A DNA stretch of 62,312 bases, taken from assembly GCA_048938895.1 (NCBI GenBank), contig JBHLLU010000021.1, forward strand, positions 1 to 62,312, given 5' to 3'. Both the position numbers and the translations under genes were made by a program. The stretch comes from Promethearchaeota archaeon. Its GTDB lineage: Archaea > Asgardarchaeota > Lokiarchaeia > Sigyniarchaeales > SOKP01. The notes under the pieces were generated by a model. It was not told the DNA's origin and made no database searches. It worked only from the letters and a program-made list of their open reading frames with translations. Positions 6,202-35,266 of the stretch are shown piece after piece (position 1 is the first letter of the stretch; every line of letters starts with the position of its first letter).

Positions 6202-6672
6202 ATGAATGAAGAAAATAATTTAGGAGAACCTGAGCTGAAAAAGGCGAGTGAAAAGCCTTTTCAAAAAGGATGGAATAACTTAATTAACGGAATCAAAGGA
6301 GGATTTGATAAATTCCAACAATCATTAGAGGAGCAATCAAAGAAAAACAAAGAATTATGGGAAGATAATAAAGAGAAAGTAAACGAGTTCTTTAAAGACA
6401 TGAAACAAGACTGGGAAAAAAAAATCAAAAAATGGAATGAAGATATGGAAAAGACGAGAATAGAATCTAAAGAACAATGGGACGCTTATAAAAATAAGGT
6501 TAGTCAAGATTTTAAAAACTTTCAGGAAAAAGCTAAAGAGGATTGGAGTGATGGCCTTAAATCATTTAGAAAAGGATTCTTTAAAGCATATTTTTGGTTT
6601 CTAGTACTGACCATTCCTATTCTTATTATCGTGATCGTAGTACTATGGATATTAAGTCAATTAACTGGTTAA
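6202..6672 (+). CDS. Tail-anchored amphipathic helical protein
   Basis: Charged helix with periodic W/F residues and a single C-terminal hydrophobic segment. Confidence 0.7.
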   Translation: MNEENNLGEPELKKASEKPFQKGWNNLINGIKGGFDKFQQSLEEQSKKNKELWEDNKEKVNEFFKDMKQDWEKKIKKWNEDMEKTRIESKEQWDAYKNKVSQDFKNFQEKAKEDWSDGLKSFRKGFFKAYFWFLVLTIPILIIVIVVLWILSQLTG

Positions 6673-6699
6673 AACAATAAGTCTCTCCTAATTTTAAAA

Positions 6700-7359
6700 A
6701 TGATCGAAATTTTCTTAATTTCCTTCGTGGTTGGTATTTCTGGTGCATTAACTCCAGGTCCTGTTTTAACCTTTACTATATATAAGTCTCTTAAGGAGAA
6801 GAATGGATACCTTTCAGGTCTATTTATTGTACTTGGGCATGCTACCTTAGAATTTATCTTGTTAATAATATTACTACTGGGAGCAACCTTACTTTTTCAA
6901 AATCTAGTATTTCTTATCATATTGGGGATTGTTGGAGGATCATGTTTGATCTTTTTTGGTAGTTTAACGGTAAGAGACGTAGTTAATAGACGTTATGAAG
7001 TGGAGTTCAGTCTAAATGAACAAAACATGAATAAATTCAAGGGGAATAGTTATTTTGGGGGCATTTTTTATTCTGTCACAAATCCCTTTTGGGAATTCTG
7101 GTGGGCAACTGCAGGGATAAAAATTATGTATGATTTAAATGTATCTCTTAATCAACCATTTGGTTTTTTCTTATTCTTTACTGGACATGAATTAGCAGAT
7201 TTTGTGTGGTATGTACCTATATCAATCTTCATATTCTTAGGTGGTAAGAAACTAAATCCAAATGTATACAAATATGTTCTCATAACTTGTGGTGTCTTTA
7301 TGATAATATTTGGGATATATTTGTCATTCAATATACTCCTACTTCCTCCAAGTATATGA
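6700..7359 (+). CDS. LysE-family translocator
   Basis: SGALTPGP, LGHATLE and TNPFWEFWW motifs; about 6 TM segments. Confidence 0.85.
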   Translation: MIEIFLISFVVGISGALTPGPVLTFTIYKSLKEKNGYLSGLFIVLGHATLEFILLIILLLGATLLFQNLVFLIILGIVGGSCLIFFGSLTVRDVVNRRYEVEFSLNEQNMNKFKGNSYFGGIFYSVTNPFWEFWWATAGIKIMYDLNVSLNQPFGFFLFFTGHELADFVWYVPISIFIFLGGKKLNPNVYKYVLITCGVFMIIFGIYLSFNILLLPPSI

Positions 7360-7450
7360 TCTGAATATTATGCAAATATTTTAGATTTATTTGATGATTT
7401 TATCCCATAGACAGATCTAAGGATAAAAGTTACTGTTTTTGGTAAATTTG

Positions 7451-7732
7451 ATGGAAAAAGAAATGACCAGGAATGAATCTCGGAATTTTCTTATTCGAAA
7501 ACTCCTATTAATATGTCCAGTATGCCAGAAGCGTATTTATGGGAAAGATATCGATATTTTAAAAATTGACTTATCAAAAATTAATCATTGGCCTCTACGG
7601 TATATCCATTGTCATAAAACCAATAACGTACCTCTCCATGCGCTAACTATCTTTTTAGACGCAAACTTTAGTGTACGAGGAAATGAAGTATCAGATTATA
7701 TAAAAATAGATAATCAATCTGATTTAATCTAA
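7451..7732 (+). CDS. Small putative Zn-binding hypothetical protein
   Basis: CPVC...HCH...H and a LDANFSVRG tail. The start is ATG 7451 or TTG 7439. Confidence 0.65.
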   Translation: MEKEMTRNESRNFLIRKLLLICPVCQKRIYGKDIDILKIDLSKINHWPLRYIHCHKTNNVPLHALTIFLDANFSVRGNEVSDYIKIDNQSDLI

Positions 7733-9795
7733 TATTTTTCTAACTCTTGATCTTCCTGATCTTCAAAGAGTTCTGAATGTGGCTGGAGGAAATTGTTTTG
7801 ACACATAGGGCAGCTATTATACTTGCTCAACCAGAAACTAACGCAGAGGTAATGATAAGTACTACCACAAAAAGGGCAAGTAATTACCTTATCCTTAGCA
7901 AAATTGATATATTTATGACAGACTGTACACTGCACTTCTGAATCTGAAATCCCCTTACTTAGTTTCACTCGATTAGATAGTATTTTTTCTAATTTTGATA
8001 ATTCAACTTGATAAAGCCCTAGAGAATTATTCAAATGATTGATTTTCGAATTTATCTCAGCTATTCTTTCTCTTAACTCATCTTCAGTCAGTTTCTCAGC
8101 AAGAAATGATGATAATGCAAAATTTAAAGGTAATCCTTCGAACTTCTCAGTCTGCTCAGATATTTCAGTAATGGTTGCAAATAAGAATCCTTCCTTATCA
8201 AGTAATTCCTTGAAACTTTTGAATAATTTATTTATTAGAAGAGAGATAAGAAAGGTTAATTGCTGTTTTTTACGGTTAAAGTTTTCTTCCCATAACCGGA
8301 TAATTTGGTAAATATCAATATCTTGAGTCTTTTTAGCTTCAAGTGCTTTATAAACTTCATCTTTTATGGTTTGAATTTTAACGCTATATTTCTTTAAAAT
8401 TTCTTTAATCTCAGTTAACTGTGGAAATTCTTCTTTAATTATTAAGGATGTCTCATTTTCATAACTAATTATTAACTCATTGAGTTCTGAAATTTTATCT
8501 TTGATGAATTTTCTTATATTTACTCTAACTTCCTCATCTTTCACAGTCTTGATAAAGGAAAGGTATTCATTTTTTCTGCGATATATTTCAGAACCTATAT
8601 TAGAAAAAACCTTCCTTAATTTTTCTGTTATACTATCATAAGGATTGAGGTAATTCTCTAAAGTTAGAATCCAATCTTCCACTTCCTGTATTTTAGAATT
8701 AAAAAAATCGATTTTTGTATAGTAATAGTTCGCTATCTCCTCAAATTCTTCGGTTTCTGTATCATTTTGTATTTTTTCCTGGAATTTCTTTTCTAATCCT
8801 AGAATATAGTAATCTACTATTTTAGGTAAAAAAACTTGGATTTTTTGATTCTTAAGGTCACCAAGATCCTCTTCTAATTGTTTATCCTTTAATTCAAATT
8901 CCTCAATTTCAACAATGATTTCTTTCAATTTCTCCAGAAGTAACTCTTTAAGAAGGGGTTTAACGAAATTTTTTAGATTTTGGATAATTTCTTTCCTCTC
9001 CAAGATATTTATAAACTCATCTCCTTGATATTCCTCTATGATCTTATTATTGTATAGGAGATATATAAGTTCAGAATTGAAATTTATCTTTTGTTCATCT
9101 TTCGAGAGAAAATATTCGTGAAGTTCATTAAAATGGAATGTTAGTAATTGTTCATTCTGAGTTTTTTTTCTTTTTTTAACAAATACTTCGTTTAGGCTCT
9201 TTATAAAAGTATATAATTCCTTAATTTCATTCCAATTTTCTAAAACTTTAGGAATTCCCATTAATTTATAATTTAGATTCTTAATTTTTTGGATTTCATT
9301 CCATAAATAGAGTCGGTCTCTATATACATTCTCAGGTTCTCGTAATGAATTTATAATCCTAGATGCAATATCGTTGCTTCGACGAAGCAGTCCAATAACG
9401 TTTGATAATAAATCGTTGATGAAAATATTCCCATTTTTGATTAATCTTTTTATATTAGAACAATTTGAATTTAAATCTTGAAGGTTATTAATTAATAAAT
9501 TTAATTCTTTCAAAATTCCTGATTTAATATGGTAATACTCTTTAGGTTCAATATCTTTTTCAGAATTGATGATATACTCATTTAAAAAATCTGATATCTC
9601 CTCCAAATACGTAGAATATGAATCCAAACTCATAGATGATAAATTTAGTTTGGATTTGATATAATCTGTAACTTCTGATTCTTCGGCGTTTTTAGTTTTG
9701 AATTTTACTAAAGTGTTCTTTATTTCGATAACTTCATCCTTAGAAAAGGTTTTTACCTCTTTAGTCACCACAAAAATGTTATCCATTAATTTCAA
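7729..9795 (-). CDS. Coiled-coil protein with C-terminal RING finger (putative E3 ligase)
   Basis: C-terminal CTVC-x11-CPFCGSTYHYLCVSFWL-x5-CPMC, a RING pattern with the conserved W and CPxC. Confidence 0.8.
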   Translation of the reverse strand: MKLMDNIFVVTKEVKTFSKDEVIEIKNTLVKFKTKNAEESEVTDYIKSKLNLSSMSLDSYSTYLEEISDFLNEYIINSEKDIEPKEYYHIKSGILKELNLLINNLQDLNSNCSNIKRLIKNGNIFINDLLSNVIGLLRRSNDIASRIINSLREPENVYRDRLYLWNEIQKIKNLNYKLMGIPKVLENWNEIKELYTFIKSLNEVFVKKRKKTQNEQLLTFHFNELHEYFLSKDEQKINFNSELIYLLYNNKIIEEYQGDEFINILERKEIIQNLKNFVKPLLKELLLEKLKEIIVEIEEFELKDKQLEEDLGDLKNQKIQVFLPKIVDYYILGLEKKFQEKIQNDTETEEFEEIANYYYTKIDFFNSKIQEVEDWILTLENYLNPYDSITEKLRKVFSNIGSEIYRRKNEYLSFIKTVKDEEVRVNIRKFIKDKISELNELIISYENETSLIIKEEFPQLTEIKEILKKYSVKIQTIKDEVYKALEAKKTQDIDIYQIIRLWEENFNRKKQQLTFLISLLINKLFKSFKELLDKEGFLFATITEISEQTEKFEGLPLNFALSSFLAEKLTEDELRERIAEINSKINHLNNSLGLYQVELSKLEKILSNRVKLSKGISDSEVQCTVCHKYINFAKDKVITCPFCGSTYHYLCVSFWLSKYNSCPMCQNNFLQPHSELFEDQEDQELEKY

Positions 9796-21962: not shown

Positions 21963-23000
21963 ATGATAAATCCTTTCAATGAATTCTATCATGTTCCTAA
22001 TTCAAAGGAATTATTAGATATAGCTTTTAAGAGGAGTATGAAAAGCTCAGCTCAGGTATCAAAAAATGCACCTATTTTAATAAAAGCAAAGAAAAAAGAA
22101 TCTAAACGTATAAAGGTTGCAACAGAAGAACTAATAGATAGAGTCAAAAAAATTATAAATATGGTACCTATTATTGATGATCTTCCTGATTTTTATAGAG
22201 AATTAGCATCTATTTTGGTAGATGTAGATAAATTAAAACTAACATTAGGTAAATTAAATGGAATTCTACCAATTCTTAGGAAAATTGAAAGAGAACATCT
22301 ACGTCGCTTAAATAAAATTGAGGCTCCTAAAGAAGGAGATCAATTAAGACGATCGGCATTTGGTAGAATATCCTCTATTATTAACAAGCAGGATAAAAAT
22401 CTTAACCATTTGAATGCTATAAGAGGAGACTTAAGAAGAATTCCCACGATTGATTATACAATTCCATGTATCGTAGTTGCAGGGTACCCTAATGTGGGTA
22501 AAAGTAGTATTGTCAGAAACATTTCAACCAATAAAAAAATTGAAGTAAAAGAATATCCTTTTACAACTAAAAAATTAAATATGGGACATATTGAATTAGA
22601 TGGTAAGTTTGAGAAAATAAAAATACAGTGCTTAGATACTCCTGGCATCCTTGATCGTCCCATGTCAAGAAGGAATAACATAGAATTACAGGCAATCTTG
22701 GCTCTGAGGTTAGTCTCTGATTTAATTTTATTTGTATTTGACCCTACACCGGCATGTGGTTATAATGTAGAATCTCAAGTTGAATTGTATCTTGAAATTA
22801 AAAAAAATTTCTCCAAGGAAGGAAAAATTGAGATAATTATAATATTTAACAAAATTGATTTAGCTAAAGACTCTGAAATTGAATATTTGAAGGAAAAATT
22901 AGATATTACTTATGAAAAACTCTACTTAACAAATGCGATCACAGGAGAAAACCTTGATTTATTAATTAATGACTTAATAGAACGATATAGAGGTAATTAA
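21963..23000 (+). CDS. NOG1-family (OBG) GTPase
   Basis: GYPNVGKSS, YPFTTK, DTPGILDRP and NKID motifs, plus the N-terminal helical NOG1 domain. Confidence 0.93.
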   Translation: MINPFNEFYHVPNSKELLDIAFKRSMKSSAQVSKNAPILIKAKKKESKRIKVATEELIDRVKKIINMVPIIDDLPDFYRELASILVDVDKLKLTLGKLNGILPILRKIEREHLRRLNKIEAPKEGDQLRRSAFGRISSIINKQDKNLNHLNAIRGDLRRIPTIDYTIPCIVVAGYPNVGKSSIVRNISTNKKIEVKEYPFTTKKLNMGHIELDGKFEKIKIQCLDTPGILDRPMSRRNNIELQAILALRLVSDLILFVFDPTPACGYNVESQVELYLEIKKNFSKEGKIEIIIIFNKIDLAKDSEIEYLKEKLDITYEKLYLTNAITGENLDLLINDLIERYRGN

Positions 23001-31965: not shown

Positions 31966-32997
31966 ATGCAAAAGTTGGAAGATTATCGATTGACATTGCA
32001 AACGAAACTATTTGGCTGAAATTGTAAATTATCTGCTGATAAACTTGACAAATTATTATCTAATGTGGGATTAAAAGGTGATATTGAGGATTCTGCTATC
32101 ATACCGGTGCCCAATACTGATCTTATGCTGGTAAAAAATATTGACATATTCACGCCTATTTTGGATGAACCAGAACTTATGGGAGAGATTGCTGCAGCAA
32201 ATGTGACAAACGATATCTATGCTTTGAATGTGCTAGACATTTCTGGAATGCTTGTATTCTTAGGAATGAAGAAGAATATGCCTATACACATTGCTGAAGG
32301 ATTATTAACTGGTATTAAAAATTTCATGGAAAAGAAAATTAATTCGAAGATTCTGGGTGGTCATACTATATATTCTGAATGGCCCCTGATTGGTGGTGAA
32401 GCTTCTGGATTTGTAGATAAAAGTAAGATAATCAAGAAGAATTTTGTTGAAAAAGGAGATGAATTAATTCTAACAAAGCCGGTTGGAAATCAAGCAATAA
32501 TGGCTGCATATCGATTACAAAAAAACAATCCTGCTCTTATAGAAACCTACTCAAAGTCGGAAATTGATGAATCTATTGAATTAGCCATTGAATTAATGGT
32601 GACCCCACTACGAGATGTAGTAGAAGTGGTTCATTCTTACCCTGACGTTAAATTTGTCCATTCAATGACTGATGTTTCTGGATTCGGATTATCTGGACAT
32701 TTGAAAGAAATGCTTCAAAATTCTAGACTCTCAGCGATAATTGAGAAGGTACCGATAATTAAATTAACTAAAGAATTAGCTTATGATTTCGGATACAAAT
32801 TTGATAAATGCGAAATGCCTGAAACGGCAGGAGGAATGCTTATTTCCGTTGATCAAAAACAAGCTCAAGAGTTTTCTGAACGTCTTTCAAAATTCGGAGT
32901 TGATAATTGGATAATAGGGTCAATCAATAATAGACATAAAGCTAAGTTTGTTCACATCTCTAAAGATGTTGAACATATTGAAATATCTAAATTCTAA
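31966..32997 (+). CDS. selD: Selenophosphate synthetase, selenocysteine-containing (copy 1)
   Basis: SD GAGGTG, ATG 31966, then MQKLEDYRLTLQTKLFG-U-NCKL with an in-frame TGA at 32017-32019. DIFTP, GGHT, LTKPVG, TDVSGFGL.GHL and ETAGGML motifs; 343 aa. Confidence 0.93.
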
Positions 32998-33068
32998 TGA
33001 TGTCGATGAAATAAGCGTAAACACATTTTGTGATTGCTTAATGAGAATTCTGTTGTGAAACAGCATCA
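32998..33068 (+). promoter_or_regulatory. Eukaryote-like SECIS element in the selD copy 1 3' UTR
   Basis: Helix I TGATG/CATCA, ATGA core 33006-33009, helix II TAAGC/GCTTA, apical AAA with a CAC/GTG mini-stem, GA at 33043-33044. Confidence 0.88.
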
Positions 33069-33360
33069 AAAAATATTGAAGAATTTAATTCTTTACGATT
33101 TTCTTATTCTTAATAATCTTTTTATCGAAATAATTAATAAATAATATCGAAAAGATTAATTAATAGTAATATTTATAAAATAAAAATTAGTAGATTATGT
33201 AAGACGACTTAAGTATTCAGAAAAATGTTAAGACGGTTAAAAGTTATTTTTCAAAAGTTCAGACAAACCAAATTCTCCTAAACTTAATAAATAAAATAAG
33301 AATTAGTTCAGAGATTATAGAATTTTTCTAACTTCCACAAAAATCAAAAAGATGAGGTGT

Positions 33361-34389
33361 ATGAAAAAAGAACAAGAATATAGATTGACAAAATCTGTTA
33401 AAATCTTTGGATGAAGCTGTAAACTCGGTTCAAATGAATTATATGAATTACTTAAGAAAACAGGTCTAGCAGGAGTCATTGAAGATGCTGCAGTTATTCC
33501 TATTCCGAACTCTGACATCGTACAAGTTAAAAACTTAGACATTTTTACCCCTATCGTTGATGAACCCGATATCATGGGGCAAATTGCTGCCTGTAACGTT
33601 ACAAATGATATTTTTGCAATGAATGTTCCTGAAATATCAGGTATGTTAGTATTTTTGGCAATAAATAAAAAAACACCTATGAAGACTGCTGAAGGAATAC
33701 TCGAGGGAATAAAATATTTTATGGAGAATAAAATAAACTCGAAAGTCGTAGGAGGTCATACAATTTATTCAGAATGGCCATTAATAGGTGGAGAAGCATC
33801 TGGATTTGTGAACAGAAATGCTATTATACATAAACAGGGAGTCAAAAATGGAGATAGGCTATTAATTACTAAACCTATAGGTTTGCAACCTGTTATGGCT
33901 GCATACAGGATTCTAAAAGACATACCAGAAATGCTTGAGACATATTCAGAGAAACAGCTTAAAAAATCAATAAAAATTGCGATAAAAATTATGACAACTT
34001 CAAATCAAGACGTTGTACGAGTTATTCACTCTTTGGAAGATTTTTCATTTATTCACGCTATGACAGACGTTACTGGGTTTGGCTTGGCAGGGCATCTATT
34101 AGAAATGCTCCAAAACTCAAACTTATCTGCTGTAATTGAATCTATTCCTTCTATCAAATTTTCAGAAAGCCTTGCAAAAGATTTAGGATATGCATTTGAT
34201 GAATGTGAATGTGCAGAAACCGCTGGTGGTATGCTTATAGCAATTGATCCCTTGAAAATAGAAGAATTCTCTGAGATCCTCTCAAAAAAGGGAATTCCAA
34301 ATTGGATAGTTGGCACAATTGATACAGTTTCTCCTGAGCTAGTGAGAATATCAGAGGACGTTGAAAATATTGAAATCACAAAATATTAA
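33361..34389 (+). CDS. selD: Selenophosphate synthetase, selenocysteine-containing (copy 2)
   Basis: SD GAGGTG, ATG 33361, then MKKEQEYRLTKSVKIFG-U-SCKL with an in-frame TGA at 33412-33414. Same SelD motifs as copy 1; 342 aa. Confidence 0.93.
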
Positions 34390-34462
34390 CGATGTTAATG
34401 ATATAAGCTAAAACAAATAAAAATGGGCGCTTATGGAAATTTCCACCTGTGAGGTGGCATCG
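34390..34462 (+). promoter_or_regulatory. Eukaryote-like SECIS element in the selD copy 2 3' UTR
   Basis: Helix I CGATG/CATCG, ATGA core 34398-34401, helix II ATAAGC/GCTTAT, apical AAAA, GA at 34436-34437. Confidence 0.88.
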
Positions 34463-34471
34463 GATTATTAT

Positions 34472-35266
34472 TTATTCTCTTTCCTTAATTTCCCCCTTAA
34501 GGTTCAATATAACTTCTCGTAATTCCTCTAATGCTTTATTAATCAGTTCTTCTCCTTTTTCTACATTAAAAGCAGTAATAGAAACTTCAACCAAAACAGA
34601 GAGTCCAATCTTAGGATGAGTTTTAATCCAAAGCTGAGGATATTTTTTCTCTAATTCTGTTGTATAAGGCGCGATTTGACTTTCCCCAATACCCGAGAAA
34701 AGAAAACCTTTCTCAACAAATTTGCCTCTTCTCTCTTTCAAAATGGGATTGATTATATTTCTAAACATTGATTTCATCTCTGCTGGTACCCCTGGGAGGA
34801 CAAAAATTGTAGTATCATTTTCTTTAATTTTAACTCCAGGAGCAGTTCCCACAGTATTTGGTAAGGGAGTAGAGCCTTGAGGGAGATAAGCCATTTTTTT
34901 TCGTTCTTTTGTCATTCCCTGAAGTTTTAAAATTCCTCTTTCATACGCATGCTTGTACGCTTTAGTTATAGATTTAAGAGCATGTTCATTTAATTCCAGT
35001 TTCCTATCTAAACCTTTAGCTATACCTTCTAAGGTCATATCATCAAATGTAGGACCAAGTCCTCCTGACGTAATGATTAAATCTGGTTTTCGTTTCAATA
35101 TTTCTTTTAATGAAGTAGAAATTACACTCAAGTCATCCTGTATACTTGTTATTCTTCTTAGATTGTGACCGTAACGAGCAATTCTTTTTGCCATCCAATT
35201 TGAATTGCTATCAAGGGTTTTTCCAATTAAAATCTCATTCCCGATAACTAATATCTCTACTTCCAT
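34472..35266 (-). CDS. CinA-like / molybdopterin-binding (MoCF) domain protein
   Basis: IGNEILIG..LDSN, SGGLGPTFDDMT, GTAPG, LPGVPAEM and GESQIAP motifs. Confidence 0.9.
   Translation of the reverse strand: MEVEILVIGNEILIGKTLDSNSNWMAKRIARYGHNLRRITSIQDDLSVISTSLKEILKRKPDLIITSGGLGPTFDDMTLEGIAKGLDRKLELNEHALKSITKAYKHAYERGILKLQGMTKERKKMAYLPQGSTPLPNTVGTAPGVKIKENDTTIFVLPGVPAEMKSMFRNIINPILKERRGKFVEKGFLFSGIGESQIAPYTTELEKKYPQLWIKTHPKIGLSVLVEVSITAFNVEKGEELINKALEELREVILNLKGEIKERE

Follow-up and report, generated by a model that had tools for sequence, protein, structure and literature searches.

Selenocysteine (Sec) insertion sequence (SECIS) elements resembling those of eukaryotes have been described behind the selenophosphate synthetase genes of Asgard archaea. 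In the main text of Mariotti 2016 (PMC4989117) the SPS lokiSECIS is built from AUGA and GA, a stem, and either an apical loop or a further stem at the apex. In that of Huang 2024 (PMC11227280) the Asgard selD element is a type II eukaryotic SECIS (eSECIS)-like structure made up of two stems and an internal loop, with a lower stem G[A/U]G_C[U/A]C which corresponds to helix I below. The criteria given there are a core [A/G]UGA...[G/A]A, an upper stem of 7–15 base pairs (bp) with at most two mismatches, and an apex composed of an unpaired A-rich bulge, a 2–8 bp ministem and a small apical loop; the alignments of the surrounding regions are said to be without highly conserved nucleotides. The present analysis concerns two such elements, each behind one of two tandem selD genes of a Promethearchaeota archaeon (assembly GCA_048938895.1, contig JBHLLU010000021.1; the whole stretch of 62,312 nucleotides (nt) is called the window), and in particular a third helix, the arm, inserted in both between the 3' GA of the core and the 3' strand of helix I.

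Both elements begin at the base right after the selD stop codon (Table 1). Helix II measures 7 bp in each, and in copy 1 one of its positions is an A.A mismatch; the A-rich bulge reads UAAA or UAAAA, and the ministem is CACA/UGUG in copy 1 and weak in copy 2, where RNAfold draws 2 bp and an 8-nt loop. The two agree with the type II criteria of Huang 2024, copy 2 marginally so in its ministem, and each is the published Asgard eukaryote-like selD SECIS of type II. This bears out an earlier reading made from the DNA letters (the sequence-only reading), which had recognized the eukaryotic layout from helix I, AUGA, helix II, an apical AAA and GA, with a start 1 nt after the selD stop codon, and had pointed to eukaryote-like SECIS in Lokiarchaeota. 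The same reading had proposed an extra hairpin in each element; both hairpins lie where it had placed them, their stems differ in sequence and both pair, and RNAfold draws three-way junctions. A search of the whole window at Rfam gathering scores gave zero matches, and at E values up to 10 the region 32900–34600 gave seven weak ones, all of them snoRNA/sRNA noise and none to a SECIS family.

In common with lokiSECIS and the type II elements of Huang 2024, those of the window come directly after a UGA-containing selD and possess AUGA, a 3' GA, a short main stem, an A-rich bulge and a ministem, and their lower stem GAUG/CAUC fits the published consensus. With eukaryotic type II SECIS, as characterized in the main texts of PMC4989117 and PMC11227280, they share the position 3' of the coding sequence, the AUGA...GA non-Watson-Crick core, the ministem, the unpaired A's above helix II and a helix I below the internal loop; they differ in having a helix II of only 7 bp and no Rfam match, and in belonging to a group, the Asgard archaea, for which no SBP2 is reported. 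The text models in both papers, figures and supplements apart, contain neither a hairpin in the 3' half of the internal loop nor the 2-bp C (canonical) stem found here, and by the descriptions given in them the eukaryotic SECIS has an unstructured internal loop at the position of the arm. A 'short extra stem' is mentioned in Mariotti 2016 (PMC4989117, section 11) for the VhuD subtype of the Methanococcales/Methanopyrus SECIS, likewise an archaeal Sec signal of the 3' untranslated region with AUGA and GAC/AAC between two stems; by that description, however, the extra stem is a lower stem below the core, and the core is a GAA_A bulge.

A SelD search in 400 genomes of the phylum gave matches in 234. 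The best 30 loci (L001 being the window) contributed 51 selD copies, 48 of which carry the same element and form a near-gapless alignment (A1) from which the main counts are taken. RNAalifold, unprompted, drew helix I, part of helix II, the ministem and the arm on A1. For the full structure 94.6% of 959 cells are paired (shuffled mean 88.8), and the covariation score of 0.258, compared with 0.141 for shuffled alignments, was reached by 0 of 500 shuffles; as the sequences are related this control overstates the significance, and a fairer one, in which the 3' partners were slid by 1–3 columns with relatedness kept, gave scores of 0.029–0.107. The three arm pairs that MAFFT was able to align are 100% paired (CG 48; CG 35, UA 13; GC 28, AU 19, GU 1), two of them varying on both sides. 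The inner arm pairs were misaligned by MAFFT because the arms of the two selD paralogue types differ by one base; on a model-fitted alignment (A2; 49 rows, including a spurious 14-bit row, L021:2226–2265) the fourth pair reads UA 23, CG 8, UG 6, GU 2, AU 1 and other 9. Helix I is 92.9% paired in A1, its outer pair being CG 15, UA 13, AU 5, UG 2 and GC 1; helix II is 90.8% paired, with two-sided change in four of seven pairs, and the ministem 98.6%.

The form of the arm goes with the paralogue type, 14-nt CYGUU..AACRG in one and 15-nt CCACN..NGUGG in the other. The other three selD copies (L007 minus, L014 plus, L019 minus), which are most like copy 2 of the window, are followed instead by a type I element with helix I, AUGA, a 9-bp helix II, an 11-nt loop and the arm, whose loop contains AGCA. 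The presence of a type I element behind these three copies implies that SECIS subtypes have been exchanged between genes.

A further 15 selD loci represent eight other families, and 30 (L063–L092) come from f31, a distant family of the phylum. In the eight families plain minimum free energy (MFE) folding draws the arm in 13 of 15 loci, while L048 and L049 show a 3-bp arm by eye only. In the alignment of the 30 f31 elements (A3) helix I is 99.5% and the arm 96.6% paired, and four of the five arm pairs exhibit two-sided change, for example CG 18, UA 8 and UG 4. The f31 covariation score of 0.250–0.302 was matched by none of 500 shuffles, and slid controls gave 0.045–0.100. The arm pairs, which the sequence-only reading had proposed to check for covariation, covary in the 48 relatives and again in this family; judged by these alignments, the extra stem-loop is conserved, covaries as a helix and is a real third arm. 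In f31 the UGA stop codon of selD doubles as the UGA of the SECIS core; roughly two in three copies have an AUGA core and most others GUGA. The final codons of selD form the 5' strands of helix I (GAGACCG) and of the C stem (UCC). With gene end and SECIS overlapping in this way, the C-terminus of the protein (..ETEFP) and the fold of the RNA place limits on one another. GUGA cores are reported for Thorarchaeia selD in the main text of Huang 2024 (PMC11227280), and f31 may be this class.

Other UGA-containing genes of this genome were located by protein family, which yielded four FlpD/VhuD-type genes with two UGA each, a VhuU behind the hydrogenase large subunit, and two AhpC/Prx-like genes. 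The regions downstream of all seven fold by plain MFE into the same junction, the arm being inserted after the 3' GA (or AA) and before helix I closes with its 3' strand, and an HdrA-like gene with two UGA, added by a descriptor scan, has the junction and arm as well. The arm stems behind the non-selD genes are all different (CCUU/GAGG, AUGG/CCAU, ACCCA/UGGGU, GCCCC/GGGGU, AACC/GGUU, GGUU/AACC). Relatives supply 28 copies of the VhuU junction, of which 27 are complete and one is truncated where its contig stops; the arm stem of these copies, CCC(C)/GGG(G), is invariant, and the loops are UUGCNN or ACGCAA. In two other families all three UGA-containing VhuD-type (FlpD) genes possess the junction, and their arm loops hold AGCA, AAGCA or AAGCG. 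A model built from the selD elements (R1) scores highly in its own genome on the two selD elements only (81.3 and 80.2 bits); four weak matches (15.5–21.4 bits), all within coding sequence, were taken as chance. The selD elements are thus a subtype, and the arm is common to all SECIS examined. On this comparison it is to be regarded as a general part of the SECIS in this organism and its phylum, not as a device of selD.

One base of the arm loop, a G, is invariant in 48/48 elements of A1 and 30/30 of f31 (78/78 together) and is followed by C in 40/48 and 28/30, respectively. The loop consensus in A1 is U (43/48), G (48/48) and C (40/48), then variable bases; in f31 the loop is a 5-mer Y/A-G-C-R-A. 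Judged by eye, the loops of the 15 loci from other families contain GC in 14 cases and read GGUGAU in one. The statement of the sequence-only reading that TGTGA is conserved holds for the two copies in the window and fails among their relatives, only four of the 48 having it.

The lower part of the core can be compared with a kink-turn. Between helix I and AUGA lie the three bases U-C/U-N, of which the first two are paired with the dinucleotide immediately downstream of the 3' GA. This C stem is 97.9% paired and covarying in the 48 elements of A1 (pair 7-50: CG 33, UA 11, UG 4; pair 6-51: UA 45, CG 1, other 2). The core bases G11 and A12 are each present in 48/48, those of the 3' strand in 46/48 (G) and 48/48 (A), and the first pair of helix II (3b.3n) is non-Watson-Crick in 23/48. 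The f31 counterpart of the C stem, UCC/GGA, is 100% paired and almost invariant, its 5' strand being coding sequence. In SECIS 1 the two facing GA dinucleotides would be the tandem G.A pairs of a kink-turn. The order of parts in such a turn is present at the level of sequence: the C stem of 2 bp leads into a 3-nt loop (N-A-U) and then into tandem G.A pairs, after which helix II takes the place of the NC (non-canonical) helix. To that extent the core has the textbook kink-turn layout, which would predict a three-dimensional kink.

In the elements parsed the arm leaves the non-bulged strand 0–3 bases after the C stem, and 0–2 nt lie between it and helix I. A related arrangement is the k-junction of the thiamine pyrophosphate (TPP) riboswitch, in which, according to the text of Wang et al. 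2014 (PMC4005666; also section 12, where the third helix is placed opposite the loop), a third helix on the non-bulged strand is coaxial with the C helix. The Asgard elements are like it in the kink-turn layout and in having a third helix in the non-bulged strand beside the C helix, with which coaxial stacking is conceivable. They are unlike it in that the arm is set off from the kink loop by the 2–3 bp C stem and 0–3 unpaired bases, and in being a recoding signal in mRNA and not a ligand sensor. The resemblance, as we read the comparison, is one of topology only and not of membership.

The element as a whole would act as a SECIS that recodes UGA and brings about Sec insertion, its kink-turn held by an L7Ae-type protein and its third arm stacked coaxially and directly against helix I. 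The arm stem is free to vary provided that it pairs, and the loop keeps its G, usually followed by C, and would be presented to a trans-acting part of Sec decoding, be it archaeal SelB, the ribosome, or a SECIS-binding protein that replaces the absent SBP2. In a similar vein the sequence-only reading had suggested that the arm may bind a Sec-decoding factor of the SelB/L7Ae type, an idea for which the conserved loop is the ground. It seems to us rather likely, from the pattern of conservation, that the arm functions as a recognition arm for the Sec-decoding machinery: one loop base is kept across loop sizes and gene families, which favours recognition over a mere stable cap. A more specific version, in which the G-C loop docks an Asgard-specific SECIS-binding factor that does the job of SBP2, the signal is bipartite, and eukaryotic SECIS lost the arm when SBP2 took over, is put forward tentatively, as the less probable course.

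Several observations weigh against a recognition arm as described, besides the relatedness of the sequences in A1. The energies of the whole elements are not unusual relative to shuffles (z 0.06 for selD1, -1.45 for selD2); single-sequence thermodynamics is weak evidence and alone would not pick out these elements, and the case for the arm therefore rests on comparison. The invariant stem of VhuU is neutral on pairing and argues neither way. The loops outside selD are looser (GCG, UUGCU, GUGCA, AUGUGAA, AUAGCGC), and many of those in selD are GCGA, GCAA or GUGA closed by U-A, that is GNRA-like, so that the selD loop could be a plain stable tetraloop and no contact site. An AT-rich genome in which short hairpins are frequent might suggest that the arm arose by chance, or that it is a hairpin for termination or stability with no part in recoding, and so might a loose junction descriptor which finds 132 matches as against 101 in the reversed sequence. 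Against this the covariation appears in two distant lineages; helix I, with a 5' strand that is coding in f31, closes around the arm, which hence is no hairpin at a free 3' end; and the 3' segment with the arm was equalled in stability by mononucleotide shuffles in 81/2000 (selD1) and 10/2000 (selD2) cases, the 3' segments of seven elements together folding better than shuffles at a combined p of ~3e-6. We regard a chance or terminator hairpin as having a negligible likelihood. The sequence-only reading had also thought of a feedback element specific to selD, by which the arm would sense selenium status or bind SelD and so tune the synthesis of the selenium-donor enzyme. The selD elements do form a distinct subtype (type II, with a 5-nt 3' linker), to which the high-scoring R1 matches in the genome are confined. 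The idea is contradicted by an arm at the same position behind the VhuD-type, VhuU, Prx-like and HdrA-like genes of this genome and behind non-selD genes of other families, and by the three relatives' selD copies that keep the arm within a type I element; feedback through selD is very improbable.

The stronger competitor is a purely structural role. By stacking on helix I the arm would set the geometry of the junction, as in a k-junction, and allow the kink-turn to fold with no dedicated protein; the loop would be kept only as a stable cap, and nothing would bind the arm. The distance of 0–2 nt from helix I fits coaxial stacking, the TPP k-junction offers a precedent in its third helix, and this account retains a minor though appreciable share of the probability because many selD loops resemble GNRA tetraloops. 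What speaks for recognition instead is that G, mostly with C, is kept in loops of varied size, from the 5-nt YGCRA of f31 to loops of 7–11 nt in other families and the UUGCGU of VhuU, and a stable cap alone would not demand that G and C be retained. In addition, from kink-turn geometry the NC helix should fold toward the C helix, so that an arm of 4–6 bp on the far side would point outward. We consider the scaffold-only account rather unlikely.

A recognition arm is also favoured by the missing SBP2: the main texts of Huang 2024 (PMC11227280) and Sun 2021 state that SBP2 is missing from Asgard archaea, and there are only two L7Ae-family genes in this genome. The genes for aSelB, tRNA-Sec and SecS lie together on one contig (C51), and directly after SecS comes an open reading frame (ORF) for a 226-amino acid (aa) protein. 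A homologue in the same position was found in 12/12 loci of the same genus and in 6/6 more distant genomes, down to 35% identity. In single-sequence searches the protein was found at 127/134 for f1, 12/14 for f3, 4/4 for f4 and none for f31, the profile stopping at the order level; this limit may reflect divergence, and it neither supports nor excludes a link with the arm. The protein belongs to no Pfam family and gave no ESM Atlas lead. Its AF2 model (predicted local distance difference test, pLDDT, 95.4) had no match at E <= 0.001 in a Foldseek search against PDB, and VIA-align returned generic four-helix-bundle matches only, the best with Z 8.7 over residues 119–226. It is a candidate for the Asgard-specific binding factor, and it may be the Sec-linked hypothetical protein mentioned by Huang 2024.

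The sequence-only reading knew of no description of the extra hairpin, and none is given in the main texts of Mariotti 2016, Huang 2024, Sun 2021 and the 2026 review PMC13188914, figures and supplements apart. Sun 2021 in its main text mentions a stem-loop only and no arm, and neither 'hairpin' nor 'junction' occurs in the text of the review. Literature on SECIS and three-way junctions, judged mostly by titles and abstracts, describes no SECIS junction; in PMC2746813 'three-way junction' occurs only in a reference title on H/ACA RNA, and literature joining SECIS, Asgard and L7Ae deals with methanogen SECIS only and with no SECIS junction. The arm is apparently undescribed, although figures or supplements may draw it without comment, and it refines a known RNA signal, it does not define a new one. 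The arm bears on how SECIS are recognized in archaea that have no SBP2, and the Asgard elements have been proposed to link the Sec decoding of archaea with that of eukaryotes. If the two-stem models omit a conserved third helix, sharper search patterns for Asgard selenoproteins become possible, and reporter constructs cut down to the 'key region' could miss a part that is needed. A third helix with a conserved loop would, if true, offer a concrete handle on the missing SECIS-binding partner, and the eukaryotic SECIS would then have arisen from a three-way junction by simplification.

Table 1. Positions of the selD genes, the SECIS elements and other features mentioned in the text; numbers with no prefix refer to the window.
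Feature	Position	Strand	Remarks
selD copy 1 (selenophosphate synthetase)	31966-32997	+	Sec UGA 32017-32019; stop TAA 32995-32997
selD copy 2	33361-34389	+	Sec UGA 33412-33414; stop TAA 34387-34389
SECIS 1, whole three-way junction	32998-33068	+	71 nt; RNAfold centroid; model R1 81.3 bits, E 2e-20
SECIS 1 helix I	32998-33002 (UGAUG) with 33064-33068 (CAUCA)	+	A1 pairs 1-75 to 5-71
SECIS 1 C stem	33003-33004 (UC) with 33045-33046 (GA)	+	3-nt loop 33005-33007 before the G.A pairs
SECIS 1 core AUGA	33006-33009	+	its GA faces the 3' GA 33043-33044
SECIS 1 helix II, A-rich bulge and apical ministem (type II)	33010-33042	+	helix II 33010-33016 with 33036-33042
SECIS 1 third arm, CUGUU-GUGA-AACAG	33050-33063	+	no linker to 3' strand of helix I
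SECIS 2, whole three-way junction	34390-34462	+	73 nt; RNAfold MFE and centroid; R1 80.2 bits
SECIS 2 helix I	34390-34394 with 34458-34462	+	RNAfold, A1 columns
SECIS 2 C stem	34395-34396 with 34438-34439	+	A1 columns
SECIS 2 core	AUGA 34398-34401, GA 34436-34437	+	A1 columns
SECIS 2 helix II	34402-34408 with 34429-34435	+	RNAfold, A1 columns
SECIS 2 third arm, CCACC-UGUGA-GGUGG	34443-34457	+	adjoins 3' strand of helix I; alternative: 6 bp, GUG loop
Sec cluster	G000:C51:99000-114000 (= L133)		aSelB L133:370-1788 minus; tRNA-Sec 6616-6708; SecS 6842-8206
226-aa ORF directly after SecS	L133:8328-9008 = G000:C51:107327-108004		
Candidate SECIS	G000:C102:8661-8733	+	behind 61-aa ORF ending ..GGGTUGC..
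Candidate SECIS	G000:C144:55438-55502	-	behind 74-aa membrane-like ORF with ..SSUS..
Candidate SECIS	G000:C113:16830-16906	-	behind 311-aa ORF with ..TTUNAAG..
HEAT-repeat protein, 993 aa	28784-31765	+	just upstream of selD
NOG1-type GTPase	21963-23000	+	

Each selD copy contains one in-frame UGA, at residue 18 within the GU.C motif of SelD (translated with TGA as U). Against NCBIfam TIGR00476 (selD; cut-off 125) copy 1 scores 179 bits and copy 2 197 bits, and the two proteins share 59% identity. The tandem duplication is not confined to one genome; within the genus, most give two selD matches.

A first SECIS pattern scan of the genome, with 916 raw matches, was too noisy. A junction descriptor with filters for an A-rich apical start and for GC or GUG in the arm loop gave 11 matches, compared with two in the reversed sequence; it missed three of the elements located through their genes, and serves as a generator of leads and not as a census. 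Among its matches are three candidate junction-type SECIS (Table 1) that point to possible unannotated small selenoproteins, at a false-positive level of about two in 11.

The HEAT-repeat protein encoded just upstream of selD matches PF01602, the N-terminal region of adaptins, at 53.9 bits (cut-off 37), which is a eukaryote-like signature of trafficking. Elsewhere in the window a NOG1-type GTPase, a eukaryote-like ribosome-biogenesis factor, is encoded (NOG1_N 117.8 bits, NOG1 71.1 bits).

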